From Alphaproteobacteria bacterium (GTDB lineage Bacteria > Pseudomonadota > Alphaproteobacteria > RF32 > CAG-239): a stretch of DNA of 64,000 nt. Each line of letters starts with the position of its first letter. Position 1 is the stretch's first letter. Shown here piece after piece: positions 17,458-60,662 of the stretch. A program made the translations under genes and the position numbers. The notes under the pieces were generated by a model. It saw only the letters and a list, made by a program, of their open reading frames with translations. It was not told the DNA's origin and did not search any database. The stretch lies in the NCBI GenBank assembly GCA_017470585.1, contig JAFUYI010000009.1, positions 954-64,953 of the forward strand, read 5' to 3'.

Positions 17458-18426
17458 TTAAGTTACCTCGGTTACGGCGCGCAAGTTGCCGTCACGGTTG
17501 ATTTGAACCACCCTTAATTTATGGTGCATCTCCTCAATTGTCTTGCGTCTGTCCAAAGTCGGATAGGAGTGCAAAATACGATCAACAAACGCCTCGTACG
17601 CCGCACTGGAACTTTCGGCGTGGATGGTTGCCAAGCAGTTATCGTGACCTGATCCCATCAGCTCCCATAAAGCTCCGGCGTTTCCGGTTGAAATCTCACC
17701 TCCGATAATCGCATCCGGAGTAAAACGAACCACCAAGTCAATAATTCCTTTATAATCGAACTGGTTGGTCTGTCCGGTACGCGACATTACGATATGAACA
17801 CGATTAGGGTGCGGAACCAAAAGTTCCCGCGCATCCTCAATCGTTATAACGCGTTTATGAATGTCCAAAATTTTCAACAAGTTGTTCAAAAAGGTGGTCT
17901 TACCGGTTGCAGTCGCACCGCTGACCAGAATATGATCACCCCTTTTAATACTCAACAGCAGCCGTTCATACGGATCATCGGGGTCTTTAATATTCTTCAA
18001 CGGGTTAATTTGGTGCAATTTTTCACCCTGTTTCAAACCGTAATCCCCCAAACCGAACGCCACATCATCGCTATGAACACGGATAGCTATAGCAACACCG
18101 CCGGTAATATCGCCTTCATCGTACATCACGTTTTTACCGCAGATTGCCGAAAAACGATGTTCCCCGGGAATAGTGGCATAAACCACCGGCGTTCCCGAAA
18201 CCGGATCAAACGGCAGTTCATAGGTATTGGCAACGATATAAAGTAAATCAGTCAAGTACTCCTTGCTTAATTTTTCATCTTTATACATCACCCACGGATA
18301 CGCCCTTTTGCCGCGCAGTCGGAGCCATACCTGCCCGGAGCGGTTAATGGCAACCTCTTCAATGCCTTCTTGGTTGTACCAGTATGCCAACGGGCGAAGA
18401 ACCGATTCCAATACTTCAAAACTCAT
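17458..18426 (-). CDS. virB11: T4SS ATPase VirB11/TrbB family
   Basis: 322 aa; Walker A SGATATGKTTFLN, Walker B/His box; T2SS-E/VirB11 family. Confidence 0.9.
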   Translation of the reverse strand: MSFEVLESVLRPLAYWYNQEGIEEVAINRSGQVWLRLRGKRAYPWVMYKDEKLSKEYLTDLLYIVANTYELPFDPVSGTPVVYATIPGEHRFSAICGKNVMYDEGDITGGVAIAIRVHSDDVAFGLGDYGLKQGEKLHQINPLKNIKDPDDPYERLLLSIKRGDHILVSGATATGKTTFLNNLLKILDIHKRVITIEDARELLVPHPNRVHIVMSRTGQTNQFDYKGIIDLVVRFTPDAIIGGEISTGNAGALWELMGSGHDNCLATIHAESSSAAYEAFVDRILHSYPTLDRRKTIEEMHHKLRVVQINRDGNLRAVTEVT

Positions 18427-18438
18427 ACTTTCTCACTC

Positions 18439-21400
18439 CTAGAACAGTTGCGGAACATCACTGCTGCCCGAAGACACACCGGACGAACGATTGGTTGTTA
18501 CGACGCCGGTACTCGGCGGAGGCGGAGGTGTTGCGCCGACGGCGGGTTTAGCTCCTCCCGAGGTCGCCGTATCATCTACCAAAGCCATTGCCGGCTGGGC
18601 ATCAGTTGAATCACCCTCATATACTACCGAAGATGAACCGCCGCCCTTGCCGAAGTTAGCCTTACGGTTAGCCTCATCGGCAGCACGCTGATTAGAGGTC
18701 TTTTTATCGTCAATCAAGACATCTTTATATTCTTCGTTGTCCGAACCGTCTGCGGCATTATCGGCTGTGCGCAGCCACAAATCAACTTTCGGGTAAACGA
18801 TAATGCGTGTCCCCGCCGGAATAAAGGTAATTGCACGGATATTTGAGCGGTCGGCCAAAATCTGGTTGAACATCGCTTTGGTATCATCCAAAAATCCTTC
18901 GCGGGCATCGTTCATTGCCTGTTGCTTTGAGGTTTCGTTTTCCGAATCCGAATTTTCATCAGTTGAGAACAAAATCGCCATACCGTTATTAGCCAAAGAA
19001 GTGGCAAACGGCATTGCATATTTTTTGACCAACTGGCGATCCAAATATCCCAGCACGCCGCCGCGTCCCTGTGCGTCGCCGGATTGCGCCGAACTGATGT
19101 CAAACATTACACCGTTGGGCATAATCAAACGATCCCATTGAATGGCAATACGCGCCGAGGCGGAAGCATCTTCGGCTCCAGAACCGCCGCCGCAGGAGCC
19201 TAGCAATCGGCTGCCCGCCGGAATAATTACGTTACGCCCGTCTTCGGCATAAACATTGCGCTCCACAAACGCCGTAACCGGAACTTCGTGTTCGGTGTCA
19301 ATCGAGCGGGCAATAACTGCCGGTATCGGCTTATCCGCCAAAATCATCATATCCATATCAACCGGCAGTGTGGAGATAACTTTTTTAACTCCCCAATCTT
19401 TCTGTTTGCCGTCAAAGGCTTCGCGGCTGTATGAAGTGCTGATCTTTCCGACTTCCATATTCTGCCGTCTTACACCTTGCGCAGCTGATAATGCTGCCGA
19501 ACGCTGCACATCATATCTTTCGCCGGGACCGAATCCGCCGCCGGGGCCTAAATTGCCGGGACCGTCTCCGGTGCCGTATGCACCGCCCTCACCGAATGTT
19601 CCGGCGGGAACGAAAATCTCTCCTTTGTCCGCTCCTTTTGCCGACTCCTCAATACCGATAAGAGAGCCTTGGTCATCAACCACCAAGCCGTCCGGCAACA
19701 ATTTTCCCAAAACTTTGCCCGACTTATTGATAACACTGCCGTCCTCCAAAATATCACCCAGATACTCGCCGTCCGGAGTAAGCGCAATATTTACCGAGCG
19801 TTTATAATCTTTTTCCTGAACTTTGATTGTTCCCACCTCGGGCAGCTTTTGTTCTACAACCGTGGGTTTTTCATACCAATCAAGTTTGGTATTGCCGATA
19901 ATCTGACCGTCATGGCTGACTGCCGAACCGTCCTGATTGAGCATACCGATAAAGTTGCCCTTGGCATCGACAATCTTGTTATCCGAACCGACATAACCTA
20001 TCACATTGCCTTCGGCATCATAAATAGGTCTTCTTTTTTCGGCTTCATAAAACTGCAAAGGCTTGGCGGTTGCAATAATCTGCCCGTCGGTTGCCTCAAT
20101 ATCGCCGGCAACCCCTAATGTACCTATTTGTTCGCCGCTTTTAGCAATTACCTTGCCGTCAAGGTTAAGCTCGCCTATTACCTCGTTTTGCTTGTTGCGG
20201 ATAAAGAAATCACGGTTGCCGCGGGCAAACATTTTAGAAGAATTATCAACGGCAAAGCCCTTTATCATTTTGCCGATACGCTGATTGGTAAATGAAATAA
20301 TACTGCCGTCTGAAGCAATGTAGCCAACCGCATTGTGTTCGTTGTTGTACATATACATATCATATAAGGCAAAGCCTATCGCATTACTGCCGGAGTTGAC
20401 ATTACCGTCAAAATCAACCGTTCCGAGCTTTTGACCGCGTCCGTCAATTACTTCACCTTGTTCATTGACAAGCCCCATGTACTTATTATTGTTATCAAAG
20501 GCATAACGATACTTAAACACCATTCCCGCCGCAGTTCCGGTTCTGGAATTAACCACATCATCAGGGGTGGCATAGCCGATATTCTGTCCGCTTTGGTTTA
20601 CCACACTGCCATCAATCAATGTACGTCCGATAATTTTGGAATCAAAATCAATAACCGGAAAAGTCTGCATCACAACTCCGATGAGTGCGCCTTGTTTATT
20701 GTGCAGACGGTTCTGCCAATCAACGCACCCTAAACTCTCTCCGGAATAATTTATCACTTTACCTTTGGAGCTGACCATACCGACAGTCTGCCCGCCGAAA
20801 TCCGTAACGGATCCCGGAACAATCGCAAAACCGACCACATTGCCGCCCTCGGAAATAACTTGCCGATTGGGTAAAACAATTCCCATGGACACTTCACGAT
20901 AATTTTTAACATCACCGCCGGGGGTTACGGTACCGATAAAATCACAGCGACCGTTAATAACAGGCATCAAACCCAGAACTTCTCCTATGCCTTCTCCGGC
21001 ATTATCCAAAACTATGCCTTGGGAATTTACCCTTCCGGCAACCGCTGCGCCCGCATCATAAATCAACCCTTGATTATCGGCATAGCCCAAGAGCATTCCG
21101 TCATAAGAAACCGCCGTTTTAGCTTGCAAAGCATATCCGATAACCGGCATATATGCACCTGCGGCAGTAGAAACCACACTGCCATCAGGCAAAATCTTGG
21201 CCAAGGGTTTTAAGTCTTGACTTAAAACCTGATTGCCATCGGCCAAAACGCCAAGACTGCCTCCGCGGAAATTAACCGCATACATCGGGTTCACACTGCC
21301 GCCGGAAAGTTTATTGTTCTTATCAATATCAAATCCGTATTGTGTCAATCGTCCGGATTGAACAGCACCGCGGTTGGTTATTTCCCCGTTGGGAGAAATT

Positions 21401-22755
21401 GCCCCGATAACCGTTCCGTTAAGAGAATAAATACCGCCAAGAGCAACCGTGTTACCGTCAATTCCTCCTTCGGGACTATAGACATATCCGAACGGAGAAA
21501 CAATCCTCTTTTCATCACTTTTACTCAAAACCGAGTTAATTCCCGTAACCCCCAACGGTTTGTTGTTGTCATCAACCACAACTTTGCTTTCCAAGGTGGC
21601 TCCGATTACCTTTCCGGAGCTGTTAAGGGCAAAATCTCCTCTCATAATTCCCAAAGGTGTGCCGTTGGGCAAAATCACCTGTCCGTTTTTAAGCGCGTGC
21701 GCCCGCAAAGCCCCCCGATAGTCAAAAATCGGACCGGAGGCAATAACTTTGCCTATTTGCTTGCCGTCGGCATCAAAAATCACATTCCACGGACCTATGC
21801 GCCCTACGATATTACGCCCGCGGGCAATTTTTCCCTCCGGCATAATGCGTCCCAAATATTTACCGGAAGAATCGGCGGCAGTAGCGGCAATATCTGCCAT
21901 AAATCCGATTGTATTGCCTCCGGTATCGGCAATACTGCCATCAATCTGCAAATACCCTATCAGTTTTTCGTTATTGATAACCTCGCCGTTATAAGTAACC
22001 AAACCGATATATTTTCCCGATATATCAAAAGCATAACCTGATTTAACTATACTTCCGATTACCTTATCGGCTTCATCATAAGCAAAACCGTTGGCCTTAA
22101 TGAAACCTATCTGTCTGCCTTCAAAATCGGTAACTTTTCCGCCCGGAGAAACACTGCCGATAAAACGCCCGACCGCATCAATAACCATTTTCGAGGAAAT
22201 TAACCGCCCCTCTAAAATAAAATCATTACCGGAACGTTTATAAGCATAGCCGTCCGGAGAAACAAAACCTATGGTCTGTCCTTGGAGGTTGGCATACATT
22301 CCATCTCCGGTCAAACGCCCTACTGTCTGCCCGTTATCGTCATAAATCAAGCCCGGAAACAAAACCGAACCCAAGATTTCAAATCTGTCATCAACCACCA
22401 AACCGTTAGGCAGAACTTTACCGATAATTTTTCCGGTTGAAAGGCGAACCGTACCGTCATTATTTACTTTACCCAACATACGGTTATCATTGCCAATGGC
22501 AATTCCCCGCGGAATAACACCGCCGATGAGACGACCATCAAAATCCACAATCAAGCTGTCGGCGGTGATATTGCCGATTAACTGATTTTCAAAGCTGACC
22601 ACTTTTCCGTCCGGAATAACCTTTCCGATTAAATCGCCGTTAAAGTCAATGGCCGTAATTTCCTGTGCCATTGCGACCGAAGAGTACAACATCAAAACCG
22701 CCGTTCCTAACAGGCGGGAAATTCTGCCGATTTTGACTTTTAACTTTCCCATCAA
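18439..22755 (-). CDS. virB10: VirB10/TrbI-domain T4SS core protein with ~1000-aa N-terminal tandem-repeat extension
   Basis: 1438 aa. N-terminal signal/TM (LLGTAVLMLYSSVAMA), then about 45 degenerate 20-22-aa repeats (DxxGxxIGxVxxxGxVxD). The C-terminal ~250 aa match the VirB10/TrbI beta-barrel domain (TLPVDMDMMILADKPIPAVIARSIDTEHEVPVTAFVERNVYAEDGRNVIIPAGSRLLGSCGG...IAIQWDRLIMPNGVMFDISS...AITFIPAGTRIIVYP). A Pro-rich C-terminal tail follows. Confidence 0.8.
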   Translation of the reverse strand: MMGKLKVKIGRISRLLGTAVLMLYSSVAMAQEITAIDFNGDLIGKVIPDGKVVSFENQLIGNITADSLIVDFDGRLIGGVIPRGIAIGNDNRMLGKVNNDGTVRLSTGKIIGKVLPNGLVVDDRFEILGSVLFPGLIYDDNGQTVGRLTGDGMYANLQGQTIGFVSPDGYAYKRSGNDFILEGRLISSKMVIDAVGRFIGSVSPGGKVTDFEGRQIGFIKANGFAYDEADKVIGSIVKSGYAFDISGKYIGLVTYNGEVINNEKLIGYLQIDGSIADTGGNTIGFMADIAATAADSSGKYLGRIMPEGKIARGRNIVGRIGPWNVIFDADGKQIGKVIASGPIFDYRGALRAHALKNGQVILPNGTPLGIMRGDFALNSSGKVIGATLESKVVVDDNNKPLGVTGINSVLSKSDEKRIVSPFGYVYSPEGGIDGNTVALGGIYSLNGTVIGAISPNGEITNRGAVQSGRLTQYGFDIDKNNKLSGGSVNPMYAVNFRGGSLGVLADGNQVLSQDLKPLAKILPDGSVVSTAAGAYMPVIGYALQAKTAVSYDGMLLGYADNQGLIYDAGAAVAGRVNSQGIVLDNAGEGIGEVLGLMPVINGRCDFIGTVTPGGDVKNYREVSMGIVLPNRQVISEGGNVVGFAIVPGSVTDFGGQTVGMVSSKGKVINYSGESLGCVDWQNRLHNKQGALIGVVMQTFPVIDFDSKIIGRTLIDGSVVNQSGQNIGYATPDDVVNSRTGTAAGMVFKYRYAFDNNNKYMGLVNEQGEVIDGRGQKLGTVDFDGNVNSGSNAIGFALYDMYMYNNEHNAVGYIASDGSIISFTNQRIGKMIKGFAVDNSSKMFARGNRDFFIRNKQNEVIGELNLDGKVIAKSGEQIGTLGVAGDIEATDGQIIATAKPLQFYEAEKRRPIYDAEGNVIGYVGSDNKIVDAKGNFIGMLNQDGSAVSHDGQIIGNTKLDWYEKPTVVEQKLPEVGTIKVQEKDYKRSVNIALTPDGEYLGDILEDGSVINKSGKVLGKLLPDGLVVDDQGSLIGIEESAKGADKGEIFVPAGTFGEGGAYGTGDGPGNLGPGGGFGPGERYDVQRSAALSAAQGVRRQNMEVGKISTSYSREAFDGKQKDWGVKKVISTLPVDMDMMILADKPIPAVIARSIDTEHEVPVTAFVERNVYAEDGRNVIIPAGSRLLGSCGGGSGAEDASASARIAIQWDRLIMPNGVMFDISSAQSGDAQGRGGVLGYLDRQLVKKYAMPFATSLANNGMAILFSTDENSDSENETSKQQAMNDAREGFLDDTKAMFNQILADRSNIRAITFIPAGTRIIVYPKVDLWLRTADNAADGSDNEEYKDVLIDDKKTSNQRAADEANRKANFGKGGGSSSVVYEGDSTDAQPAMALVDDTATSGGAKPAVGATPPPPPSTGVVTTNRSSGVSSGSSDVPQLF

Positions 22756-25700
22756 TTCCTCCGATTTTTAGCAACTTCCTGCAACGCATATCCGGCAACT
22801 CTCTTATCCAAATTGATAAACGAGCCGTTACTCTTCAGATAGCCGATGACTTTATTTTCGGTATCAATCACCATACCGTTGGCGTTTAATCTTCCGACAT
22901 AACGTCCGGTATTGCTCAATACCGTTGCACCGATTTTATAAATACGTCCCAAAATTCCCTCATTGGCATCAAGAGCCAAATCGGTTGAAAGACTGCGTCC
23001 GACAACCGCGCCGCCACTGTCAACAACCGAACCGTCGGCGGCAATATAGCCGACAACTTTATCTTCGCTGTTAATCACCAAGTCGCCGTCAACCACTTCG
23101 CCGATTAAACGTCCCGAACTGTTCAAAACATTGCCATCCGACAAAGCTCTGCCGATATTGATATTCAAAACATCCAAAACTTCGCCGTCGGGCATAACCG
23201 AACCGATAACTTTACCCGAAAAATCAATCACCGCGCCGCGTTTTAATAAACTCAAATTCTTATCGGTTGAACCGCCCGGAAGAATCGCAGTGATATTCTT
23301 GCCGTTCAAATCAATAACATCCCCCAATGAATTGATATGCCCTTTATAATTGCCCCAAACGTCAACCACGATTTCCTCGCCGATAACTTCGCCGACAATC
23401 GCTGATTTGTTATTCAAAGCCTTGCCGTCCGGAGTACTGCGTCCCACGGTTTTGCCGTCCAAATCAATGATTTTGCCGTCCGAGAGGCTGTAGCCCAAAA
23501 AAGAACCGTCATATCCTATTGCCGCACCGCGTTTAACCACGCCGCCTTTTACAACGCCCTGTTTGTCAAAATAATAACCTTTGGCATCTAAACGCCCCAG
23601 TTTCTCACCGAAACGATTGACAACCTCATTATTATATCCGACCATACCGATGACCTTGCCGGCAAAATCAATGACTTGACCTCGCAAAGCCGTAAATCCC
23701 GGCTTGCGGTTATAAAAGGCTGTTCCGTCCCCGTAAAACTTGCCGGCGGAAACTCCTTTGCCGTCATATACATTGCCGTCCGGGAACAAACGCCCGATAA
23801 CAGAACCTTTGTAATCAACTATTGTCGTCTTGGAAGGCATTGCCACACCGATAATTTTAGAGTTTTCATCAATTACGACATTATGAGCCAAAAGCCGTCC
23901 CGACGACTGCCCGCGGATAGGAACTCTGGCATTGGAATTAACCATATTCAGGAAGTTGCCTTCCAAATCATAAGCGTAAAGATTTTCCAAAACCCTGCCC
24001 AAATACGCGCCTTTTTTATCAAAAACATCTCCGTAAGTACCTACACATCCGACGGCTTGCCCCTGCGGTGATAAAACCAGACCGTTTTCCTCAACTTTGC
24101 CCAAGAAATTGCCGTCATAGGAAACCGCAATCCCCGAACGAGCCACACCGCCGATAATATCGCCTTTTTCATCCAAAACCGTACCATCAGGATTGACACA
24201 TCCGACATAGCTGCCGTTTTGGCGCACGATTCCGTCGGTTTCAACTTCACCGATTTTGGTACATGTATCATCAAAAACCGGTCCCAAAGTTACAACTTCG
24301 CCGATGTATTCTCCGGTATCGTCAATAATCACTCCGTCCGCATTGACTTTGTATTTCGTGGTGATATTTGCGGCCTTAATTGTGCCGTCTTTTTCAAGAT
24401 AGCCGATATTTTTGCATCCCTGTCCTACAACCAATCCTCCGCGGACAAGACGGGCGACAATCGTGGAACCGCTAGGGCTTTTAACCATACCGTTTGACTG
24501 TACGCGTCCGACAATCTGCTTGGCATCGTTTTCAACTGTTCCGTTATTGTTGACTTTACCCAAAACTTTACCCTGCGGAGTAATCGGAATCATCTGTTCT
24601 TGAATCAAACGTCCCAAAACATTCTGCGTATTATTGATAACTTGTCCGTTTTCATCAACATAGCCTATGACATTGCCTTCGGTATCAAAAACTTCTCCGT
24701 CCCGTCCGACATACCCCATAATCTTGCTGTTTTTATCCAGCAAAACATTGGCAAATCCGCCGACTTCGCCGATTTCATTGCCATCATTATCAACAATTTT
24801 TCCCGAGGGCATAAGCTTACCGATGGCATCGCCGTTGAAATTGACCACATTGCCGTTTTCATCGACATATCCCATAACGTTACCGTTTTTATCGTACGCC
24901 AACTGGCGCGACATTAACCCCGCTTGTCCGATAATTTGACCGTTTTCATCAACAATTGTACCGTCATCAAGCATTTTACCGATAATCTGACCGGAAAAAT
25001 CAACTACGTTACCATCTTCATCAACATAGCCGATAATATTGCCGTCCTTGTCATAGGCAAGACGTTTATTTGATCCGCCGTCGAGCTTACCGATAACATT
25101 TCCGAAAGCATCTATTATTGTGCCGTCATCTTTAAGCGAACCGATTTTCTTACCGTTATCACCGAAGACATTACCGTTTTCGTCAACATAGCCCATAACT
25201 TTGCCGTTCTTATCGTATGCCAAACGAAGATTATTGCCCTCGGTTGATTGTTTGGTTTTACCGATTACACGACCGTTTTTATCAACCACCGCTCCATCGG
25301 CACGGACTTTACCTATAACTTTGCCGTCATTGCCGATAACCTGACCGTCTTTGTCAACATAGCCGATAACTTTTCCGTTCTCATCGTATGCCAAGCGCGC
25401 AGCTTTGCTTTTGCCGGTCTTGCCGATTATTTTACCGTTTTCATCAATAATCTTACCATCAGCACGAACCCGTCCGATAATTTCACCATCGCTGCCTATG
25501 ACATTTCCGTTATCGTCAACATAGCCGATAACTTTCCCGTTTTCATCGTATGCCAAGCGAGCGGATTTAGAAGAAGCTTTCTTGGCTTTACCGATTATAT
25601 TTCCGTTTTCATCAATAACATTGCCGTTTTCATCTTTGCGCCCGATTACTTCGCCGTCAAAATTATAAACGTTGCCGTCTTCACCGACATAGCCTATAAT

Positions 25701-28250
25701 ATTGCCGTTTTCATCGTATGCAAGCTCATTTTTGCCCGATACACCGATAACATTACCGTTTTCATCGACAATCAAACCGTCCTCATTACGATGACCTATA
25801 ACTTCACCGTCAAAATTGCGGACATTACCGTTTTCATCAACATAGCCTATGACATTGCCGTTCTCATCGTATGCAAGCTCATTTTTGCCCGATACACCGA
25901 TAACATTACCGTTTTCATCAACAATCAAGCCGTCTTCATTGACACGACCGATTACCTCTCCGTCAAAATTATAAACATTGCCGTCCTCTCCGACGTATCC
26001 TATAACATTGCCGTTTTCATCATACACAAGTTCGTCACGAGAAGATGAGCCTATCACCTGTCCGTTTTCATCAACAATTGTACCGTCGGCATTAAGCTTG
26101 CCTATCTGCTTGCCGGTAAAATCATAAACATTGCCGTTTTCATCAATGTAACCGATAACATTGCCATCATTATCGTATGCCAAACGTTGCACCGGAGCCT
26201 TACCGATTATATTGCCGTCCTCATCTACGACATTTCCCTCATCATCAACACGGCCTATGATTTTGCCGTTAAAATCAACCACATTGCCGGCATCATCAAC
26301 ATAACCGATAATATTGCCATTATCATCGTATGCGACTTTTTGTTTTGAGGACATTCCTATAATATTGCCGTCATCATCAACAATTAACCCATCGGAACGC
26401 ATATGCCCGATTTTATTGCCGGCAAAATCATAAACATTGCCGTTTTCATCGATATAACCGATGACTCGACCATCTTTATCGTACGCCAAACGTTGCCCGG
26501 GAGCCATACCGATAACTTCACCGTTTTCATCTACAATCAAGCCTTCTTCATTTACCTGCCCGATGACATTGCCTTTCAAATCGTGCACTATGCCGTTGTC
26601 ATCAACATAACCGATAACGTGTCCGTCTTTATCGTAAGCCCAGCTTGATACTTTGGAATCAACATCACCCTCCGGTGCGGCACGTCCTATGATGTTGCCT
26701 TCTTCATCGATCAACATCCCGTTTTCAGCCATAATGCCGAGCTTTTTACCGCCCTCACCGATAACATTGCCGTTTTCATCAATGTAGCCGATAACGTGTC
26801 CGTCATTATCATAAGCCAATAACGCTCCCGAAGCCGTTAATTCGTTGCCGTCGTTATCAACGATTTTACCGTCGGGACGAGTGCGTCCGATAACATTGCC
26901 ATGAAAATCACGAACAGTTCCGTCATCATCAACATAGCCTACAACCTGTCCGTCCTTATTATAGACCATGCGCCGCGATATGCTCTTACTCGGAAGATTC
27001 TTATCAGCTATAACATTGCCGTCTTTATCAACACGTCCGACGACCTCACCGTTGGCATCGACCACCGTACCGTCAGGCATAACCACGCCGATAATGTTAC
27101 CGTCTTCATCAACCGCCACCCTTCCGGTTTTGGTAACATGACCGATAACCTGCCCGTTTTCATCTACGACTTCGCCTTTTTCATTGAGTCTGCCGATAAC
27201 TTGTCCGTTTTCATCAACCACTGTACCGTCCGGCATAACCCTGCCGATAATATTGCCGTCATCATCATAGACATATCCCATATCAACGGCATGACCGATG
27301 ATCGAACCGTTGGCATCAACCACCGTACCGTCAGGCATCATCTGTCCGATAACATTACCGTTTAAGTCAACGACACTGCCATCAGGATTGACATAACCTA
27401 TAACATTGCCGGAATCATCATAAACAAGCTTTCGGTTATTGGCAACACCGATAATGTTACCCTCACCGTCAACCACAAGACCGTTTTCGTTTACTCTTCC
27501 GATAACGTTACCGTTGGCATCATAGACATACCCTTCATCGTCGGCATAGCCGATAACCGAGCCGTCCGGCCCCACGATTGAACGTGAACGCGGCGATGCG
27601 CCTTTGGCGTTCTTTGATGCAACCGCCGCTCCGCCCAAATTGGTATCACAGAAATTGCAGTCCTCTTTGGTAACAGCATTGCCGTAAACGGGAACTTTCT
27701 CGGATTTGGCATTGGCTTGAGTTACGTTGCTCTCATGCCATGAAATGATAAAATTATTCTGCACATTGCCGGTTACAACCGGAACCCAGCTCATGGTAAC
27801 ATCACAGGTTTCCTTACCGCGCAGAACTTTACCGCTGCATTGATCATTGAATTTAAATCCGTCAAACGGTGTTTCCGCAAGCTGCACGGTCAAAATTGCC
27901 ACCGAGGCTTTACCGTTGGTGCCAATAGTTAAAACATTTTTAGCATCAGAACCGATAATCACCTGCCCCAAAGCGACAGGATTGGGAGTTGTGGTAATCG
28001 GCGGAACCCCCTCATCAACAGTACTGAACTCAATGCTTTCCTCTTGGGGAGCGGATTGAGTAACCACGTTTAGAGGATCGTCGTTGGAGGTAAACACCGG
28101 CTCGCTGTATTCGCTGATTTGATCATCACTTGAAAACAACAAATACAATCCGATGACAAAAATAACAAAAGAAGTTATACCAACCGCAAGAATTATGCGG
28201 TTGGTTTTTTTGATATAACTTTCAGAATGTGTTAAAACTTCTTTACTCAT
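22752..28250 (-). CDS. Giant membrane-anchored tandem-repeat protein (~1832 aa), same repeat type as the VirB10 N-terminus; translationally coupled between virB9 and virB10
   Basis: ORF 22752-28271. The likely start MSKEVL is at 28248-28250, forming an ATGA overlap with the virB9 stop. N-terminal TM helix (ILAVGITSFVIFVIGLYLLF), a ~190-aa non-repeat domain, then about 70 copies of DxxGNVIGYVDENGNVxDxxGxVIG-type repeats to the C-terminus. The stop overlaps the virB10 start (ATGA). Confidence 0.7.
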   Translation of the reverse strand: MSKEVLTHSESYIKKTNRIILAVGITSFVIFVIGLYLLFSSDDQISEYSEPVFTSNDDPLNVVTQSAPQEESIEFSTVDEGVPPITTTPNPVALGQVIIGSDAKNVLTIGTNGKASVAILTVQLAETPFDGFKFNDQCSGKVLRGKETCDVTMSWVPVVTGNVQNNFIISWHESNVTQANAKSEKVPVYGNAVTKEDCNFCDTNLGGAAVASKNAKGASPRSRSIVGPDGSVIGYADDEGYVYDANGNVIGRVNENGLVVDGEGNIIGVANNRKLVYDDSGNVIGYVNPDGSVVDLNGNVIGQMMPDGTVVDANGSIIGHAVDMGYVYDDDGNIIGRVMPDGTVVDENGQVIGRLNEKGEVVDENGQVIGHVTKTGRVAVDEDGNIIGVVMPDGTVVDANGEVVGRVDKDGNVIADKNLPSKSISRRMVYNKDGQVVGYVDDDGTVRDFHGNVIGRTRPDGKIVDNDGNELTASGALLAYDNDGHVIGYIDENGNVIGEGGKKLGIMAENGMLIDEEGNIIGRAAPEGDVDSKVSSWAYDKDGHVIGYVDDNGIVHDLKGNVIGQVNEEGLIVDENGEVIGMAPGQRLAYDKDGRVIGYIDENGNVYDFAGNKIGHMRSDGLIVDDDGNIIGMSSKQKVAYDDNGNIIGYVDDAGNVVDFNGKIIGRVDDEGNVVDEDGNIIGKAPVQRLAYDNDGNVIGYIDENGNVYDFTGKQIGKLNADGTIVDENGQVIGSSSRDELVYDENGNVIGYVGEDGNVYNFDGEVIGRVNEDGLIVDENGNVIGVSGKNELAYDENGNVIGYVDENGNVRNFDGEVIGHRNEDGLIVDENGNVIGVSGKNELAYDENGNIIGYVGEDGNVYNFDGEVIGRKDENGNVIDENGNIIGKAKKASSKSARLAYDENGKVIGYVDDNGNVIGSDGEIIGRVRADGKIIDENGKIIGKTGKSKAARLAYDENGKVIGYVDKDGQVIGNDGKVIGKVRADGAVVDKNGRVIGKTKQSTEGNNLRLAYDKNGKVMGYVDENGNVFGDNGKKIGSLKDDGTIIDAFGNVIGKLDGGSNKRLAYDKDGNIIGYVDEDGNVVDFSGQIIGKMLDDGTIVDENGQIIGQAGLMSRQLAYDKNGNVMGYVDENGNVVNFNGDAIGKLMPSGKIVDNDGNEIGEVGGFANVLLDKNSKIMGYVGRDGEVFDTEGNVIGYVDENGQVINNTQNVLGRLIQEQMIPITPQGKVLGKVNNNGTVENDAKQIVGRVQSNGMVKSPSGSTIVARLVRGGLVVGQGCKNIGYLEKDGTIKAANITTKYKVNADGVIIDDTGEYIGEVVTLGPVFDDTCTKIGEVETDGIVRQNGSYVGCVNPDGTVLDEKGDIIGGVARSGIAVSYDGNFLGKVEENGLVLSPQGQAVGCVGTYGDVFDKKGAYLGRVLENLYAYDLEGNFLNMVNSNARVPIRGQSSGRLLAHNVVIDENSKIIGVAMPSKTTIVDYKGSVIGRLFPDGNVYDGKGVSAGKFYGDGTAFYNRKPGFTALRGQVIDFAGKVIGMVGYNNEVVNRFGEKLGRLDAKGYYFDKQGVVKGGVVKRGAAIGYDGSFLGYSLSDGKIIDLDGKTVGRSTPDGKALNNKSAIVGEVIGEEIVVDVWGNYKGHINSLGDVIDLNGKNITAILPGGSTDKNLSLLKRGAVIDFSGKVIGSVMPDGEVLDVLNINIGRALSDGNVLNSSGRLIGEVVDGDLVINSEDKVVGYIAADGSVVDSGGAVVGRSLSTDLALDANEGILGRIYKIGATVLSNTGRYVGRLNANGMVIDTENKVIGYLKSNGSFINLDKRVAGYALQEVAKNRRN
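25000..26650. repeat. Near-identical intragenic tandem DNA repeats (~147-nt higher-order unit encoding ...VSGKNELAYDENGNVIGYVDENGNVRNFDGEVIG...)
   Basis: Protein residues ~560-900 of the giant ORF contain almost identical consecutive 47-49-aa blocks. The opposite strand yields long artefactual periodic ORFs (25248-26048, 26403-26648). Boundaries are approximate. Confidence 0.6.
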
Positions 28251-29875
28251 TGGGTTCTTACCACACTGCAAAATACACCGTTACGTCCCAATTTGCTGCA
28301 GACACCGTCGCCCTCATCAAGGGTCTTAACAGGTCCTATTCTCAAGTGGAACAGTTCTTTGCCCTGCCCGTCGGCCGGAGCATCTACCGAGAAGAACGGA
28401 TCATAGTTTTTCAAAATTTTTGAGTATTTATCGGACAAGCTGTCCCACAGATTCTCAAGGGTTTCCACATTAGCATCGGTGCCGAGTTCAATGGAGATAT
28501 TAGACCCTGCCCCATCGGCAAAACCGGAGCCGTATTTATAGCGATTTGAAAAATCACTGGCAGCAGGATCAAATTGCTGCGTATTCTGAATCCGGTGCAT
28601 CTTGGAGTAATCAAAATCACCGTTTGCTCCGTAACCGTTAGCATTTCCGGCTCCTCGTCCCGCCATAGAGTATTCGGGAACAATTACCTCACTGCCTCCG
28701 ATATTGATGTCAAACTGTCCGCTCGGGTAGTTTGCGGCATCCCCCATAACACCGGAATTAAAGTCAGGATATTCCGCCGAACCGGCTTTAATCTGCTTTC
28801 CGCCCGGTATTTTAGCACCGCGATCCCATTCTTTGGCTGTAATATCATCGGCATAGCTGACATCATCCAATCCGGCATCATCGGAACGGCGCAATTTCAG
28901 ACACACGATTCTTTTACCGTTGCGCAACACCATATCACCTATGGCTTCAACGATAATCAAACGGTTATTCGGACCTTTGGTGCGGAATCCGACCGGAACT
29001 TCCATTCTTTCCACAATCAGCGTTACAATCGGACGCTGTGTCATATTAAGCGATTTGGCTCCCAAATCAATATAAGTGAAAATATCATCCCGCCAAACAC
29101 GTTCCGGAGCAATTACAACGTCTTCCGGATGAGGAACATAAACCTCTATATCAAAACGAAATTTGGTCGGGTCAAGAGGAATATTCTCAACCCAACTGTT
29201 TTTTTGGTTACGTTTTGTAAAAGTGGAATCAACGGACTTTCCGGAATTACCGTAATATTTACTGGCATTAACGTGTGAGCCGCCGTTTCCCCCTATAGCT
29301 CCGGCTCCGCCCGATTCGGCTCCTATTACCTCAATATCCACAATCGCATTGGTAAGACGTTCGGTGTTAACCCCCTCACTTCTGGCATAGAACACATAAC
29401 GATTGCCGGAACGTCCGAATACGATAATATTGGTATCAACCCCGACATTTGCCCCTTTGCGCGGATATAAAAGCAATGTACTGGGACCTGAAATCTGTCC
29501 GTCAAAAGTGGAATTATCACCGATATAAATATCCTCAATCATCTCCCACTCGGGGAAGTTAATCATCGTAATCATACCTTCGCGCAGACGCAACGGCAAG
29601 ACCAAATCCGGCGACCAATAATATTTGGAATAAGCCGGCTTGCTCTGCCCTTCACCGAGATTCTGCAAAGGATCAAGCCATGCACTTTGCATCATCCCCA
29701 AGGAATTAAATCCGGCATAGCTCATATCCATAGGCTGGTATTGCCCTTGTGATTGATCCGCATTTTGGTCCATGCTGCTAATGGTTGCCTGTGCTTTAAC
29801 CTCTCCCGAAAACAATATCAGAAGCAGGCTTAACATACTTATTTTCATAGACTTTGATAGCATAGCTTTATCCAC
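28247..29875 (-). CDS. virB9: VirB9/TrbG-like T4SS outer-membrane core protein with C-terminal Gly-rich extension
   Basis: 542 aa; signal peptide (MKISMLSLLLILFSGEVKAQA). The central region aligns to the VirB9 C-terminal domain (VIAPERVWRDDIFTYIDLGAK...RPIVTLIVERMEVPVGFRTKGPNNRLIIVEAIGDMVLRNGKRIVCLK). An extra ~170-aa G/N-rich C-terminus ends in a SPOR-like ...FHLRIGPVKTLDEGDGVCSKL segment (weak). Confidence 0.7.
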   Translation of the reverse strand: MDKAMLSKSMKISMLSLLLILFSGEVKAQATISSMDQNADQSQGQYQPMDMSYAGFNSLGMMQSAWLDPLQNLGEGQSKPAYSKYYWSPDLVLPLRLREGMITMINFPEWEMIEDIYIGDNSTFDGQISGPSTLLLYPRKGANVGVDTNIIVFGRSGNRYVFYARSEGVNTERLTNAIVDIEVIGAESGGAGAIGGNGGSHVNASKYYGNSGKSVDSTFTKRNQKNSWVENIPLDPTKFRFDIEVYVPHPEDVVIAPERVWRDDIFTYIDLGAKSLNMTQRPIVTLIVERMEVPVGFRTKGPNNRLIIVEAIGDMVLRNGKRIVCLKLRRSDDAGLDDVSYADDITAKEWDRGAKIPGGKQIKAGSAEYPDFNSGVMGDAANYPSGQFDINIGGSEVIVPEYSMAGRGAGNANGYGANGDFDYSKMHRIQNTQQFDPAASDFSNRYKYGSGFADGAGSNISIELGTDANVETLENLWDSLSDKYSKILKNYDPFFSVDAPADGQGKELFHLRIGPVKTLDEGDGVCSKLGRNGVFCSVVRTQ

Positions 29876-29876
29876 C

Positions 29877-30605
29877 TTATTTTACTTTATTGTAACTCAA
29901 AGAATAATTCACAACCGTAAATCCGACCGGATTTTTAAGACGTTCTTTGAATTTTACGCTTTTATAACGATACATAACTTTTAGCGAGGCCGTCCAATAA
30001 TTTATCTCCGGAGTCTTGGAATCGGGATACATATCACGGGTTTCATACTCAACCTGCCATACTCCGTCGCTTAACTCGTTCACGGTCATAATCCGCACAT
30101 CGCGCATCATACGCCGCGTGCGGATAAGTTCCAAAGCCCTGCCGGCGGTGTTTTTTATAAAATCATCATACACTGCAGAGGAGGACATTTCCTGAATCGC
30201 TCCGCCCGCGCCCCATCTGGCCTCAACCTCGGGAATATCGCGGTTAAAAGAGCTGCGCATTAAAACATACTGCCGCACAAAAGCCTCGGTTATAGCTCTT
30301 TCTTCGGTTAAATTACGATTAACCGGCTGAATATTATAAACCTGCTCTTCCTTATTTTGGAACGTCATCAAAAACGGCTCGACACGATACAGCGGGATAA
30401 CCTGCAGAATCGCCAAGAGCAAAATCAGATTACAACAAAAACTAACGGCCGTAATAATAGCAAAAGCACGCGCAGTCCACAGATAGCGTTTTTCGGCAAC
30501 ATTGGCGACAAAAGCCTCATTTCCTGCCCCCGAATCGGGCTTAATGCTTTTTCCGGTCAACAGGCGTTGATTATTATTACGATTCGTCACAACGGGTGCG
30601 GGCAT
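29877..30605 (-). CDS. virB8: VirB8 family protein (paralog a)
   Basis: 242 aa; cytoplasmic N-terminus, one TM, periplasmic NTF2-like domain (...EAFVRQYVLMRSSF...WQVEYETRD...WTASLKVMYRY). Confidence 0.8.
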   Translation of the reverse strand: MPAPVVTNRNNNQRLLTGKSIKPDSGAGNEAFVANVAEKRYLWTARAFAIITAVSFCCNLILLLAILQVIPLYRVEPFLMTFQNKEEQVYNIQPVNRNLTEERAITEAFVRQYVLMRSSFNRDIPEVEARWGAGGAIQEMSSSAVYDDFIKNTAGRALELIRTRRMMRDVRIMTVNELSDGVWQVEYETRDMYPDSKTPEINYWTASLKVMYRYKSVKFKERLKNPVGFTVVNYSLSYNKVK

Positions 30606-30617
30606 AATTTCAATCCC

Positions 30618-30806
30618 TTAAATAGTTTCAACAAACCAATCCGGCAATGTTTGCGGCAATTCAAGTTGCATACAGGCGCAAGGAGAAAGCTTTAATTCAT
30701 CGGTTGCCTTACCGATTTCAACCGGCTCCGGCTCATAATAGGAACCGAAAATACCGCAACCGGCAAGCAAGGCAACAGCAAGCAACAATATTAACTTTTT
30801 GGTCAT
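30618..30806 (-). CDS. Small lipoprotein, VirB7-like
   Basis: 62 aa; signal with lipobox LLAGC, Cys-containing mature peptide. The position between two virB8 genes and upstream of virB9 is typical for VirB7. Confidence 0.5.
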   Translation of the reverse strand: MTKKLILLLAVALLAGCGIFGSYYEPEPVEIGKATDELKLSPCACMQLELPQTLPDWFVETI

Positions 30807-30903: not shown

Positions 30904-31662
30904 TTATTGGAATTGTACTTCACTCTGATTATATCTTGTAACCGTAAAACCTAAAGGATTTATTAACCGACGACCGACAAAAAGACGTTCCGGGAAAAAA
31001 TATGAGGTAACGGATGCCGTCCAGTATTTAACGTTAAGAATAAGGGAGCCGGTCTCTCCGTTGCGGTTGCGCTGCGACACCTCATAAGTTTTAAAGTCAA
31101 CTTTCCACACCGGACTTTTTTTTCCGCCGACTTTGCCCACCGAAATAATTTCCACTTCTTGGCTTATTTGTTCATCAATATTGCGTTGCCAAACATTTTC
31201 CCGATATTTATTAAATTCCTCAAAAATAGGATCGCTTGATAAAAAATGAACGATTCCCCCCGGATACCAACGCGACATCATCTCCAACTGGTCGTTAATG
31301 ATGGTATTGCGGTATAAAACATATTGGCGGACAAATATCTCCATCAATTTTTCTTTTGAAGCCATATCATGAGCAATCGGTTCATAGCGAACCATATCAT
31401 CGGAATCCCTTTGATTGATAATCAAAAACGGCTCAACCGACACTCTCGGGGCAAGATTAAACAATGCCAGAGAGGCTGACAAGAATAAAGCCAAAGACAG
31501 CGTTGCCGTAAATAAGAACAATCTTGAAAGCCACATATAATAATACATCTTGGCACTGCGTTTTTCACGCTCATTCTGCCCGATAAAGCTGTATGTTTTG
31601 CCGCTTTTATCGGTTAAGACCTGAACTTTGGTTGTTTCAAGAATATTTCCTAAACTGCTCAT
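30904..31662 (-). CDS. virB8: VirB8 family protein (paralog b)
   Basis: 252 aa; TM (LFLFTATLSLALFLSASLALF) plus NTF2-like domain (...EIFVRQYVLYRNTI...WKVDFKTYE...WTASVTSYFFP). Confidence 0.75.
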   Translation of the reverse strand: MSSLGNILETTKVQVLTDKSGKTYSFIGQNEREKRSAKMYYYMWLSRLFLFTATLSLALFLSASLALFNLAPRVSVEPFLIINQRDSDDMVRYEPIAHDMASKEKLMEIFVRQYVLYRNTIINDQLEMMSRWYPGGIVHFLSSDPIFEEFNKYRENVWQRNIDEQISQEVEIISVGKVGGKKSPVWKVDFKTYEVSQRNRNGETGSLILNVKYWTASVTSYFFPERLFVGRRLINPLGFTVTRYNQSEVQFQ

Positions 31663-31677
31663 TTCCCTGTTATTCTC

Positions 31678-34600
31678 TTAATAAGGCATACAAACCGGCT
31701 GTTCGTATTCATCAATTTCTTTTCTTATTGAAGCATAGCCCTCATTTCTCGCTTTGGCAATCACTTTTTGATTAGCCTGTTCACTCCTTATCTTTTCGGT
31801 CAGCGGACTGCCGGATTTAGTATTGGCGGTTACACTCACCAAAGCTTGCGAATCCTGAATCATAGCCTTATAAGTATTATTGATTTTATCATAACGTTCT
31901 TTAACTGTTTCATCGTTGTAGTTCACGCGCGATAACTCACTTTGCACCTGTCCCATCATGGTATTCTTACGTTCCTGAAGTTTGCGTAAGACATAATTAT
32001 AATCATCATCACGGGAAAGATCCAGATTATCTTTAAGTGTAAAGCCCATCTTACCGAACGTTTCGCGCAAGCTCTCAACAAAATCATCTATACTGCCTTT
32101 TAACTCCGTTAAGTTCTTGTCAATCTGATTTTCTTTATCCACAAAGTGCAGGAAATCGCCTATCTGATTGGTTGTAAACATCGCACGCTGATAGGTGTTT
32201 TCCTCGGCAGATAATTCATATTTACCTGTTTTTTGCGCTTTTTCCTCTTTGGCAATAAGCTTTTCAAAACCCTCATGCGGACGGTCATTCAACAACAATC
32301 GCCCTTTTTTATAGCGCAGAAACATTCCCAACTCACTGCTCACCGGCTCGTTTATTTCTCCGGCGGCATTAGCTTTAACGCTGCCTTTAACATCTCTGTC
32401 ATAGATAATATATGTTTCCAAAATATTGCCTATTCCAACCGTATGTCCGGCAATGGTCAAATCTTTACAGGTCTGCAAGCTCTTGAGCTTCTGCAAGTTT
32501 TCGGCACTGAATTGCTTTTGTGTATTGACAATGGAATATTTACCTGAATTATCCATATCTATCATATAGCTGCCGACTTTACAGGGAAGTATAATTCCCC
32601 GCATATAGGCTTTAACTTCGCCGCCTTTTTCCAAGATTCGTCCCAAATCAGCTCCTCTTTCCACATAAGCTTTATCGGAAAGCAACAGCTGCCATACATA
32701 CGGCTGACTTACACCGTATTCAAGAAACGCTGTACTGGTGAGCTTACCGTCACTGCCTTTTTCCAAATTACGGTAATCGGTAGTATCAAAATGCACCATA
32801 TCACGGACAGTAGGATAGTGTGCCGTCAACGGAGCTTTGGGAGCGGTAAAGTCTCTGGCTTTGGCTGGAAGTCCTGCAAAATACTGTTCGTCAGCCGCAT
32901 CGCAGGTATATTCGGAACATACGGACTTATTCAAGGTCGTCTTGAAAGCAGTAGTCAGCATGGAAACGATACCGGACGAACCGACATTAAAGGTACCGAT
33001 GGCCACAGCAACATCGTGATTAAAGCAGGTTTTCGGTAAATCTTTGAGTTTGCCCACCAAATCGGTGTGCATTTTAACGATTTTGGGATTGTTATAAGTC
33101 ATATATAACTCATCGTTTTCACTCATCTTCATCACGTCTTCATAGTGATCGCTTATCAATCCCGCGGCACAACTTCTGGCTCTGTCTATCAAGCTGTCGG
33201 CTTTTTTTACCATATCAAGCACATCACCGTCATCAAGCTTTAGAGCCTTATATATGCCGGCAAGCTTCGGCGCGCTGTCTATAGCATCTTGCAGAGCCTG
33301 AAGTTTATCATTATATTCGGTTTCAATCGCCGTAATATCTTCTTGATATTTTTGATTGAGGGTATTGATTTTATCATTATTCGCCTCAATTTTGGCACGA
33401 ACCGAATCCCGGTTTTGTTCATACTGCTTTAATTTGGCACGCAACTGCCCCAACTCCGTTATTTTGGTCGCCTGCAGATTGCCGGCTTCCTCTAATGTAA
33501 GTTTTGCCATCGTATAAGTAGAAGAACTGGTATTTGTACCGCGTGCGTTTAAGGCCTCAATTTCCCGACGGGCATTTTCCACTTTACTCTCGTTTAATGC
33601 GCGTTCTCCATCGGCGGTATTTATTTTTTGGGTTACATCGCCTATCATCGCCGCCCACGCATCCAATTGTGTGTTAAGTGCAGTATTTGAGGTCTTATAA
33701 GGAAGTATTGCCGCAGCCTGTTTAGCCTTGATTGAAGCCAACGCCGAAGCTTTGGCGGCGAGCAAACCGGTCGACGAGGAAGATGAAGACGTATTCCCGC
33801 CCAACGCATCTTCAATCAACGCCAGACCGGCGTTAATTTTCTTTTTATCAACGGCTATCGGGTTGCCGCTATTAATCTTTTTGGCAATTTCCAAGGCCAG
33901 CAAATTAACTTCTATTCCGTCAATATAATTTTTCATATTATTGTATTTGTTTTCCAAATACTGGTCATAATATGCCCTTTGGTCATTCCATAAAGGATAC
34001 GGGTGAGCCGGTTTGCCGTATATCGGCTTTTGTGAATTTTGATCCTCAACCAAAATCTGCGCCGCTTTGCGACCTATCTGCCAATTCAGGAGTTCAACCT
34101 CACGCACCGAATCGGAAAAAGCCTGCGCCCGGCTGGGATTTGCCAAAACGTCATCATCCGAGCCGGAAGATGTGTCCACCGGATCATAATCCACCTCTGT
34201 GAGCCTGTCCGAATCCTTTGAAGTATCAATCTCAACCTCACCGAAAGCATCCAAATCAAACTCATTACCCACCGAAGCGTTAGCAACCTGATAGGCAGAA
34301 ATTGCCCAGCCCGAAAGACCCTTGCGGCTGTCATAATCACCGGGATCTTTCGGAGGAGTACTCTGTCCGAACCATACCATATTAGGTTCATCATAGCGAC
34401 GACCGATATACTGAATCACACATTGATCAGAGGTTTTAATCGCTTCAACCGCCTTGGCACGAAGCTCGGTATAAAGCCGATACTGCGTATAAACATCTTT
34501 ATAAGTGGGCATTCTCTGCAAGAGATTATGCGCTTCCATCGCCTCATTTACATATTTTTGCGTATCGGCAATAATTCCCAAAGCTTTAATCTGTGTTTCG

Positions 34601-36875: not shown

Positions 36876-36884
36876 GCGCCTCCT

Positions 36885-37529
36885 TTATTCGTCTTCTTTC
36901 GGCGGCTGCATATTGCGAGCCATAAGCCGTAAAACAAATTCTTTTGCTGATGCCTGCATATCGTTAATACGATTCAGACGGCGTGATGCTTCCGTTGCTT
37001 CTTTAGTGGCTTTTTTTATCATTTCGCGACTGTCTTTGGCATCTCCCGTCGACTCTTCGGGTTTGGCATCTTTGTTTTCTTTTGCCATATTGGTACGCAA
37101 AGTAAATGCGTAGGCATACATACGAGTCAAATACCCTCGAAGCATTTCATCATTAAGGTCTTTATTAGCCTGCGCCGCCTCAATCTGATTGGTTTCCGCA
37201 TTCTGCGGCATGGTAGATTGCACAGCATCCGAAAGTTTTCGCTTGTCTCCCAATGCAGCAGCCAAAGACTTCGGCTCCGTAACCGAAACAGCATCAAAAT
37301 TCAAACCGCTGCTCTCGGCAACTCCGGTTAAAGCTCCGATATCGCCTTGACGTGCAGAATTATAAGTTGATTCAATGGTTTGCAATTTTTGCTCAATAGT
37401 TTGTTTTTTGGCTTGAACATCCTCCAGAAAAGTCAAGGATGTTTCGACAAACTCAAAGTCGGCTCGAGCTTGAGGAATACTGACTATTCCCCATCCGATT
37501 GCCAATATCCACAAAGCTTTCTTCATCAC
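36885..37529 (-). CDS. Secreted helical protein (214 aa), possible VirB5/TrbJ-like minor pilus component
   Basis: Signal peptide MMKKALWILAIGWGIVSIPQARA; size and all-helical character fit VirB5. This is a positional/compositional guess only. Confidence 0.35.
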   Translation of the reverse strand: MMKKALWILAIGWGIVSIPQARADFEFVETSLTFLEDVQAKKQTIEQKLQTIESTYNSARQGDIGALTGVAESSGLNFDAVSVTEPKSLAAALGDKRKLSDAVQSTMPQNAETNQIEAAQANKDLNDEMLRGYLTRMYAYAFTLRTNMAKENKDAKPEESTGDAKDSREMIKKATKEATEASRRLNRINDMQASAKEFVLRLMARNMQPPKEDE

Positions 37530-39223: not shown

Positions 39224-39302
39224 ACCACCCTCCGTTATGAGATTCGTCCTCATAAGCTATGATAACAGAAAAATTTTATTTTATAAACCAATTTTATGCA
39301 AA

Positions 39303-60626: not shown

Positions 60627-60662
60627 CATCCGAGGGGGATTGTTTTGCGATCCCCCCTGTTT
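60627..60662. terminator. Bidirectional terminator between paralog 9 and comEC
   Basis: gagggggattgttttgcgatcccccc hairpin. Confidence 0.55.

Follow-up and report, generated by a model that had tools for sequence, protein, structure and literature searches.

A giant VirB10 that is probably split into two translationally coupled genes in a clade of gut Alphaproteobacteria

VirB10 is regarded in type IV secretion systems (T4SSs) as an energy-sensing bridge that runs from the inner-membrane ATPases to the outer-membrane channel, and to our knowledge it is a single chain in every well-studied system. Here we describe a gene, called X below, in a 64,000-nt stretch of contig JAFUYI010000009.1 (assembly GCA_017470585.1; positions 954 to 64,953 of the forward strand; Alphaproteobacteria, RF32, CAG-239), which is referred to throughout as the window. 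Gene X is a 1832-aa open reading frame (ORF) on the minus strand (22752..28250, with its ATG at 28250 and its stop codon at 22752..22754), as established by ORF calling and translation. Pfam identifies a CagX/VirB9 homologue on one side (28247..29875, minus strand, E 9.4e-12) and a TrbI/VirB10 homologue of 1437 aa on the other (18439..22752, minus strand). It is likely that a giant VirB10 gene was split in this clade of gut Alphaproteobacteria, leaving two translationally coupled genes of which X encodes the N-terminal half with the inner-membrane anchor; the protein is probably a periplasmic scaffold and not an adhesin. A sequence-only reading of the locus had already placed an 1832-aa ORF with an N-terminal transmembrane helix and a non-repeat domain of ~190 aa between virB9 and virB10, and ORF calling, Pfam and AlphaFold2 all bear this description out. 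What that reading missed is that X would be the N-terminal half of VirB10 itself and not an extra accessory protein.

Both ends of X are tightly joined to their neighbours. The start of X and the stop of virB9 overlap by 4 nt as ATGA, an arrangement that had been proposed for both ends but is found only at this one. The X/virB10 junction (22750..22768, minus strand) reads AATTGATGG, in which the TGA of X and the ATG of virB10 share one base (TGATG) and a GGAGG lies 5 nt upstream of the virB10 start, inside the last codons of X. Relatives were found with a profile of the N-terminal 234 aa of X, which yielded orthologues in 211 species-level genomes. All of these belong to Alphaproteobacteria of the gut or rumen that have not been cultured, and their deposited names include 'Azospirillum sp. 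51_20', 'CAG:495' and 'Ca. Scatocola'. Eighty of these loci were fetched and 70 counted as complete, meaning that the X ORF reaches 1000 aa or more and a TrbI domain follows downstream; the other 10 lie mostly at or near a contig end, and L009, L026 and L073 carry a premature stop or a gap of Ns. Every one of the 70 complete species-level loci keeps the order virB9-X-virB10 and the tight X-virB10 junction, which upholds the earlier assignment of X to the T4SS. In these loci X is 1099-1636 aa long, virB10 is always the next gene, and the two are separate ORFs, with a fusion in none. Of the 70 loci, 59 have a readable junction, with the form CGGAGGAAyTrA and an ATG, TTG or GTG start codon at most a few bases further on. 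All but about six of these 59 retain the GGAGG Shine-Dalgarno sequence. No excess of terminator-like sites was seen inside the operon, and an Rfam scan of the window gave no match.

Gene X can be divided into four parts, an N module (aa 1-234), array A (aa 235-438), array B (aa 439-1161) and module C (aa 1162-1832). The N module opens with a putative cytoplasmic tail (aa 1-17) and a transmembrane helix (aa 18-40), which together span 28131..28250 on the minus strand and are supported by the sequence pattern, a helix in the AlphaFold2 model and the alignment. The tail motif LTHSExY[IV][KR]KTNR is invariant or nearly so among the aligned X sequences. In 71 sequences (the window and 70 orthologues) the uncharged transmembrane stretch is 21-28 aa long and preceded by Lys/Arg residues, and no AxA cleavage site follows it in any of them. 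At 28179..28205, within codons 16-24 (TNRIILAVG) and near the start codon, two perfectly inverted 10-bp arms enclose a 7-nt loop, which may be a coincidence or may influence translation. Behind the helix lies a predicted immunoglobulin-like (Ig-like) beta-sandwich of the ASH/PapD-like type (aa 85-193; 27672..27998, minus strand), identified by Pfam, AlphaFold2 and Foldseek and followed by a conserved CxxC at aa 198-201; the alignment shows four conserved Cys residues in the N module. The Pfam match of X to ASH (PF15780) is weak (E 0.002, 18.7 bits, under the cutoff of 27), and a homologue, P0125, just meets the cutoff with 27.0 bits.

The repeat-bearing remainder differs sharply in how it is conserved. 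Array A (26937..27548, minus strand) consists of 12 conserved 17-aa beta-hairpins that lie at the same position in the 70 orthologues with 0-8 gaps and 55-87 % identity. Array B (24768..26936, minus strand) holds about 14 units of 51 aa (153 nt), as delimited by Tandem Repeats Finder and orthologue comparison, and is a variable expansion whose length ranges from 0 to 723 aa over the 70 species in steps near 17 or 51 aa; it is longest in the window and absent from the shortest orthologues. Module C (22755..24767, minus strand) comprises 671 aa of degenerate hairpins, defined by collinear alignment and AlphaFold2, and measures 670-673 aa in 69 of the 70 orthologues and 662 aa in one, with 44-84 % identity and a C-terminus that ends in EVAKNRRN. 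Against the seven closest species, dN is 0.05-0.17 in the N, A and C modules (0.11-0.17 for module C alone), with dS saturated in each case (>1.3), and these values point to strong purifying, not diversifying, selection on the three conserved modules. Gene X is not a decaying remnant, as its ORFs are intact, its dN is low, and both the length of module C and the junction with virB10 are kept.

AlphaFold2 models were built with orthologue alignments for aa 1-734 and aa 1055-1832. The first model contains a helix at aa 9-40, disorder at aa 46-80, the beta-sandwich at aa 85-193 with a predicted local distance difference test (pLDDT) of 84-89, disorder again at aa 202-221, and regular hairpins beyond aa 221, where pLDDT dips about every 50 aa at the unit linkers. 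Its predicted template modelling score (pTM) of 0.26 would be compatible with modules on a flexible string and equally with uncertainty of the model. In Foldseek searches the sandwich superimposed on the PapD-like domain of HYDIN (2e6j) with a template modelling (TM) score of 0.70 and a root-mean-square deviation (rmsd) of 3.5 A, and it also resembles the ASH domains of CEP192 and OCRL, with a probability of 1.00 for all three; this result agrees with the weak ASH match from Pfam. The second model is all-beta with a single C-terminal helix. Based on its pLDDT of 83 and pTM of 0.76, module C is predicted to be a rigid body. Structure prediction had been suggested earlier as a check on the repeats, and it thus returned regular hairpins for the arrays, in a model of low overall pTM, along with a confidently folded module C. 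A sequence search of the PDB with X matched no solved structure.

Beyond the transmembrane helix and the non-repeat region of about 190 aa, X consists of repeats throughout. Pfam assigns them to Bflower_2 (E 1.9e-144 in 19 stretches; 472.6 bits against a gathering cutoff of 38), Bflower (E 8e-88; 291 bits against 25) and DUF3659 (E 5.7e-71). The sequence-only reading had proposed units of ~21 aa in higher-order repeats of ~47 aa, and both sizes need revision. Splitting X at the motif G-x-x-[IVLMF]-G gave a basic unit of 17 aa, which accounts for 44 of 75 motif spacings, corresponds to one beta-hairpin and follows the pattern x-V-D-x-x-G-x-V-x-D-x-x-G-x-V-I-G, with [DNEQ]xxG at the hairpin tips. 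Tandem Repeats Finder gave a period of 153 nt, so that three hairpins (51 aa) make up one higher-order unit. X holds about 94 hairpins and the downstream VirB10 half about 60. The repeat consensus quoted in the earlier reading does occur, at aa 786-836. A repeat block placed there at 25.0-26.7 kb is likewise real, with limits that are slightly wider, since the regular 51-aa array covers 24768..26936. Its blocks are not nearly identical at the DNA level, as had been claimed: in-register 153-nt units are 59-78 % identical, the best pair of 150-nt windows (25971..25822 and 25818..25669) reaches 87 % with every other pair at or below 77 %, and the longest exact DNA repeat is 56 nt.

The downstream gene supplies what X lacks. 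By itself X has no TrbI match in Pfam and so stands outside the VirB10/TrbI family PF03743; the traits of that family that it does show are an N-terminal cytoplasmic segment and single transmembrane anchor, read from the sequence pattern, and a position between virB9 and virB11. The 1437-aa partner, which would be the outer-membrane half of VirB10, matches TrbI with E 1e-33 (aa 1138-1328) and Bflower_2 with E 2.7e-64. It is laid out as a predicted signal peptide (aa 1-29, AMA|QE), about 1000 aa of hairpins and, beyond a Gly-rich linker, TrbI itself at about aa 1137-1327. Across 69 loci of the clade its start comprises a Lys/Arg n-region, an h-region of 10-18 aa and AxA|QEITAIDFNGD, so that the N-terminus of VirB10 in the split clade has the pattern of a Sec-type signal peptide and not that of a canonical membrane anchor. 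The window VirB10 ends in a Pro/Ser-rich tail (..VPQLF) that it has in common with the relatives P0085 and P0087. The first ~1000 aa of VirB10 carry the same repeat families as X, and in a BLASTP alignment of 1043 columns this region and X are 26 % identical (E 7e-81); a repeat type common to the two proteins, as noted from the sequence alone, is therefore confirmed. Collinear paralogy between X and VirB10 was considered and could not be demonstrated, because the BLASTP similarity is at the level of the repeats (24-27 %) with many alternative registers. The length of X correlates weakly and negatively with the repeat length of VirB10 (Spearman -0.31, uncorrected for phylogeny), and the sum of the two runs from 2223 to 2963 aa across loci, with the maximum in the window.

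The strongest evidence on the identity of X came from proteins in which the two halves are one. A profile of the N module was searched against 1.84 billion representative proteins. Local BLASTP then revealed 16 cluster representatives of 1498-2363 aa that combine the N module at residues 1 to ~200 with a C-terminal TrbI domain. A seventeenth, P0118 (2406 aa), has TrbI by both Pfam and BLASTP and the N module by a weaker BLASTP match (24 %). The fused representatives scored whole-protein hmmsearch E values of 2.9e-179 to 1.7e-47 with the best stretch at residues 1 to ~300, and among the four tested with Pfam, TrbI was confirmed in all and ASH in one. Identity to the window proteins by BLASTP is 24-31 % over the N module and 36-48 % over TrbI. 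The layout of the fused chains is a short cytoplasmic tail, a transmembrane helix, an ASH-like Ig domain, about 1500 aa of 17-aa hairpins and TrbI; they carry the tail motif of X, one N-terminal transmembrane helix only and no signal peptide further inside the chain, and neither the EVAKNRRN nor the QEITAIDFNGD motif occurs in them. Genomic context was viewed for two of them, P0110 (2201 aa) and P0113 (2350 aa; independent contigs from JGI and ENA). Both are encoded by one gene that lies between CagX/VirB9 and VirB11, and upstream of each (loci L088 and L089) are a VirB8, a small ORF and another VirB8, as in the window. Thus X and VirB10 jointly occupy the slot that one gene holds in L088 and L089. 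Taken with the sequence comparisons, this shows homology between X and the N-terminal part of a giant VirB10, and X appears to keep the anchor that the TrbI half has lost.

With DotG-like sequences as the root, neighbour-joining trees of the TrbI domain group the split forms into one clade in 86 of 100 bootstraps and nest this clade among fused forms in 94 of 100. This topology is consistent with one fission event in a gene that was originally fused. P0082 (878 aa) was considered as an independent second split and set aside; its N-terminus is close to that of the fused P0138 and its contig has 3.5x coverage, so it is probably a truncated fused gene.

In the clade of the window the coding sequence is interrupted within the repeat region. 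X retains the tail, the transmembrane helix, the Ig domain and its ~94 hairpins, and the downstream gene retains ~60 hairpins and TrbI and has acquired a signal-peptide-like N-terminus. A mechanism for the split form can be proposed from these observations. X would be inserted as a signal-anchor protein, its N-terminus facing the cytoplasm and the body of the chain the periplasm, and the VirB10 half would be exported by Sec and relieved of its signal peptide. The two halves would then re-associate non-covalently in the periplasm and restore the bridge from inner to outer membrane. The candidate interface is probably the rigid, fixed-length module C together with the highly conserved N-terminus of mature VirB10 (QEITAIDFNGD...). 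The hairpin arrays may form a large periplasmic scaffold in which array B acts as a tolerated and evolutionarily elastic spacer. A periplasmic location of the repeats is argued from the fused proteins, in which they lie with the inner-membrane helix on one side and the outer-membrane TrbI domain on the other. The scaffold role draws support from the recurrence of such hairpin arrays in connectors that cross the periplasm. The 17/51-aa repeats are found in other VirB10s, in DotG/IcmE of Ca. Rickettsiella (P0089), in a metagenomic DotG (P0090) and in many Tad-pilus CpaB/RcpC proteins (P0092-P0107), one of which is fused to a secretin. It is further supported by DotG, whose repeats vary between species and have been located to the stalk in the periplasm. 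The sequence-only reading had raised a periplasmic or cell-envelope role, and this is the most likely one.

Several points weigh against this picture. Cleavage of the VirB10 half and the membrane topology of X are read from sequence patterns, and the direction of the change, fission and not fusion, depends on a moderately supported distance tree together with parsimony with canonical VirB10. Each pair of X and VirB10 would bring ~3000 repeat residues. Canonical T4SS core complexes have 14-fold stoichiometry, and if it applied here, the periplasmic mass would be very large. Array B, at 0-723 aa, is no precise ruler. Additionally, VirD4, VirB2 and VirB5 were not recognised in the window.

Other explanations of X have to be judged against the same evidence. 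It might be an independent, lineage-specific accessory subunit that has only its repeat type in common with VirB10 and does not take the place of the VirB10 anchor, as the separate ORFs in all 70 species and the repeat-level identity between the two proteins would allow. We regard this as unlikely, given that fused chains join the N module of X to TrbI at the same operon position and that VirB10 of the split clade has no canonical transmembrane anchor of its own. That X is a surface adhesin or an extracellular fibre on the T4SS, which had also been suggested from the sequence, is quite improbable. Such a role would suit the length of X, its richness in repeats and its variation in size between species, and local Foldseek similarity extends to Rhs/YD repeat shells and some surface proteins. 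Yet the N-terminus looks like a signal-anchor helix without a cleavage site, Pfam detects no autotransporter, two-partner secretion, LPXTG or secretin-dependent module by which X could be exported across the outer membrane, and selection appears strongly purifying instead of diversifying. Moreover, the fused homologues place these repeats between the inner-membrane helix and outer-membrane TrbI, and the periplasmic connectors DotG and CpaB carry the same repeats.

Similarity to Rhs proteins raises the further idea that X is a secreted Rhs/YD-type toxin or a T4SS substrate. Pfam RHS_repeat matches the whole protein with E 4.9e-37, and the best Foldseek matches of module C in the PDB are type VI secretion system Rhs cores (E 1e-24), but no RHS stretch is significant by itself, and the superpositions have TM scores of 0.07-0.09 and an rmsd of ~29 A. 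The hairpins are therefore locally YD-like while the global fold is no Rhs cocoon. X is also anchored by a transmembrane helix and ends in the conserved EVAKNRRN in place of a C-terminal toxin domain, and neither a cleaved toxic fragment nor an immunity gene was seen, all of which makes a toxin very improbable. A split that is nothing but a pseudogenising mutation or an assembly artefact is barely credible. The gene is indeed broken by frameshifts or gaps of Ns in many short-read assemblies of relatives, and the caution about assembly collapse that accompanied the sequence-only reading was justified for the family. For X of the window there is no sign of collapse, because the identical 1832-aa protein occurs on five metagenome contigs, the three places shown being each a different sample. 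A stop/start junction with an embedded Shine-Dalgarno sequence in the 59 readable loci, the absence of an X-virB10 fusion in all 70, the conserved signal peptide on the downstream half and purifying selection on all three conserved modules are likewise hard to reconcile with an accident.

On length variation, which the sequence-only reading had anticipated, the outcome was mixed. Variation between species is evident in array B. Within-species length was checked with complete copies from independent metagenomes in two related species that are abundant in human-gut metagenomes; 12 of 14 complete X copies in one are 1355 aa, and 22 of 24 in the other are 1146 aa. Frequent slipped-strand variation, as had been anticipated, is not what these counts show. 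Same-species copies of the window X were not found in the metagenome scan, where identity was at most 80 %. Rare in-frame shorter variants of X were seen in the related species. One of them, L108 (OJOH01000746.1), is 100 % identical to L100 save for a clean in-frame deletion of 175 aa from the end of array B into the start of module C. Such variants, L108 included, could be either real recombinational deletions or assembly collapse. Nothing points to high-frequency switching of the kind seen in CagY, the oversized VirB10 homologue with large internal repeat regions in the Helicobacter pylori Cag T4SS, where frequent in-frame recombination of the repeats tunes function.

Comparison with characterized systems helps to define what is shared and what is distinct. 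In canonical VirB10 a single chain of ~380-450 aa contains a proline-rich linker. With canonical VirB10/TrbI proteins (Agrobacterium VirB10, pKM101 TraF) the split pair shares the position between virB9 and virB11, the N-terminal tail and transmembrane helix in X, the TrbI domain in the partner gene and presumably the bridging of inner and outer membrane. Unlike them, it has an Ig-like domain and ~2600 aa of hairpins in place of the linker, is divided over two genes and has a signal peptide on the TrbI half. The fused VirB10s of sister lineages (P0110, P0113, P0118, P0125 and others) share the N module, repeat type, TrbI domain and operon slot and differ in being one polypeptide of 1498-2406 aa. 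CagY differs in having another repeat type and in being unsplit, and X has a stable length within the two related species. DotG/IcmE of type IVB systems is a VirB10 homologue that also combines an N-terminal transmembrane helix, a long variable repeat region and a C-terminal VirB10 domain. Its repeat count differs between species, 42 versus ~90 (PMC2824747), and its repeats have been assigned to a periplasmic stalk, with those of Legionella thought to form a beta-helix (PMC7511231). DotG is nonetheless a single chain without an ASH domain, and the Legionella repeats are of a 10-aa pentapeptide type. CpaB/RcpC of the Tad pilus is likewise an inner-membrane-anchored periplasmic connector with an inserted hairpin array, but it belongs to another machine and has flanking SAF and RcpC domains.

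The repeat itself is related to the beta-flower fold (PF21784/PF21785, clan CL0395), which is known from AlphaFold models alone and to which no function has been assigned (Durairaj et al. 2023, PMC10584680). In that fold the hairpins close into a shallow barrel of 8, 10 or 12 strands with 4-, 5- or 6-fold symmetry. X shares with this fold strong hidden Markov model matches, short antiparallel strands joined by loops of unequal length and the [DNEQ]xxG tips described for beta-flower hairpins (PMC10584680). Described beta-flowers are single domains of ~96 aa, whereas X strings ~94 hairpins in tandem within a secretion-system subunit. A bolder proposal, which we offer tentatively and think somewhat doubtful, has two parts. 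The split would turn the covalent link of VirB10 into a separable non-covalent joint, with module C, possibly through its EVAKNRRN helix, docking on the hairpins at the start of mature VirB10. VirB10 of type IVA systems, DotG of type IVB systems and CpaB of the Tad pilus would each have independently recruited arrays of 17-aa beta-flower hairpins, which would be a general periplasmic scaffold of elastic length.

Pfam also identifies other T4SS genes of the operon. Downstream of virB10 is a VirB11-type ATPase (17458..18426). On the other side, the VirB9/CagX homologue is long (542 aa) with Gly-rich inserts, and its C-terminus is weakly similar to the peptidoglycan-binding SPOR domain (Pfam E 0.0016, under the cutoff). 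Beyond it, two VirB8 paralogues (29877..30605 and 30904..31662) flank a VirB7-like ORF of 62 aa with a lipoprotein signal (LLAGC lipobox; 30618..30806, minus strand); the presence of two VirB8 copies is reminiscent of the rvh arrangement in Rickettsiales (PMC2653234). Between VirB8 and VirB4 (39303..41735) lie four ORFs without a Pfam match (1308, 424, 214 and 575 aa; 31678..39253, minus strand). They are syntenic in the relatives L001 and L004 and may be divergent VirB6-like proteins or novel T4SS parts. No relaxase was recognised in the window. The system is flanked by housekeeping genes (UvrB, LeuRS, AccA/AccD, thioredoxin reductase and flagellar FliN) and is therefore chromosomal and probably non-conjugative. 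Elsewhere in the window, a C5 cytosine DNA methylase (9100..10830, plus strand) adjoins a serine resolvase/invertase (10827..11447, minus strand), and the two may constitute a small mobile or phase-variable module. A Fic/DOC-domain protein (51711..52823, plus strand) and the ComEC competence channel protein (60661..62538, minus strand) are also encoded.

Oversized, repeat-bearing VirB10 homologues such as CagY and DotG are already known, as is the beta-flower repeat as a curated Pfam family. Three aspects appear to be undescribed in the searchable literature: the giant VirB10 clade built from an ASH domain and beta-flower hairpins, the conserved division of these proteins into an anchor half and a half with the barrel, and the recurrence of the beta-flower repeat in three kinds of machine, each time in a periplasmic connector. 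We found no report there of a natural VirB10 split, and literature searches on the RF32 T4SS and on DUF3659 gave nothing relevant. X is liable to be annotated as 'hypothetical', 'DUF3659' or 'YD repeat', with its membership in VirB10 overlooked. Its recognition flags a conserved chromosomal, rvh-like T4SS in uncultured Alphaproteobacteria that are common in human and animal guts. The beta-flower repeat is placed in the periplasm-spanning parts of three kinds of envelope machine, and if true, the scaffold reading would give this fold its first cellular role. For VirB10 itself, a split found in more than 200 gut-bacterial species, alongside fused sister forms, amounts to a natural experiment on whether covalent continuity matters in coupling, and the comparison of split and fused forms asks which parts of the VirB10 chain do what.

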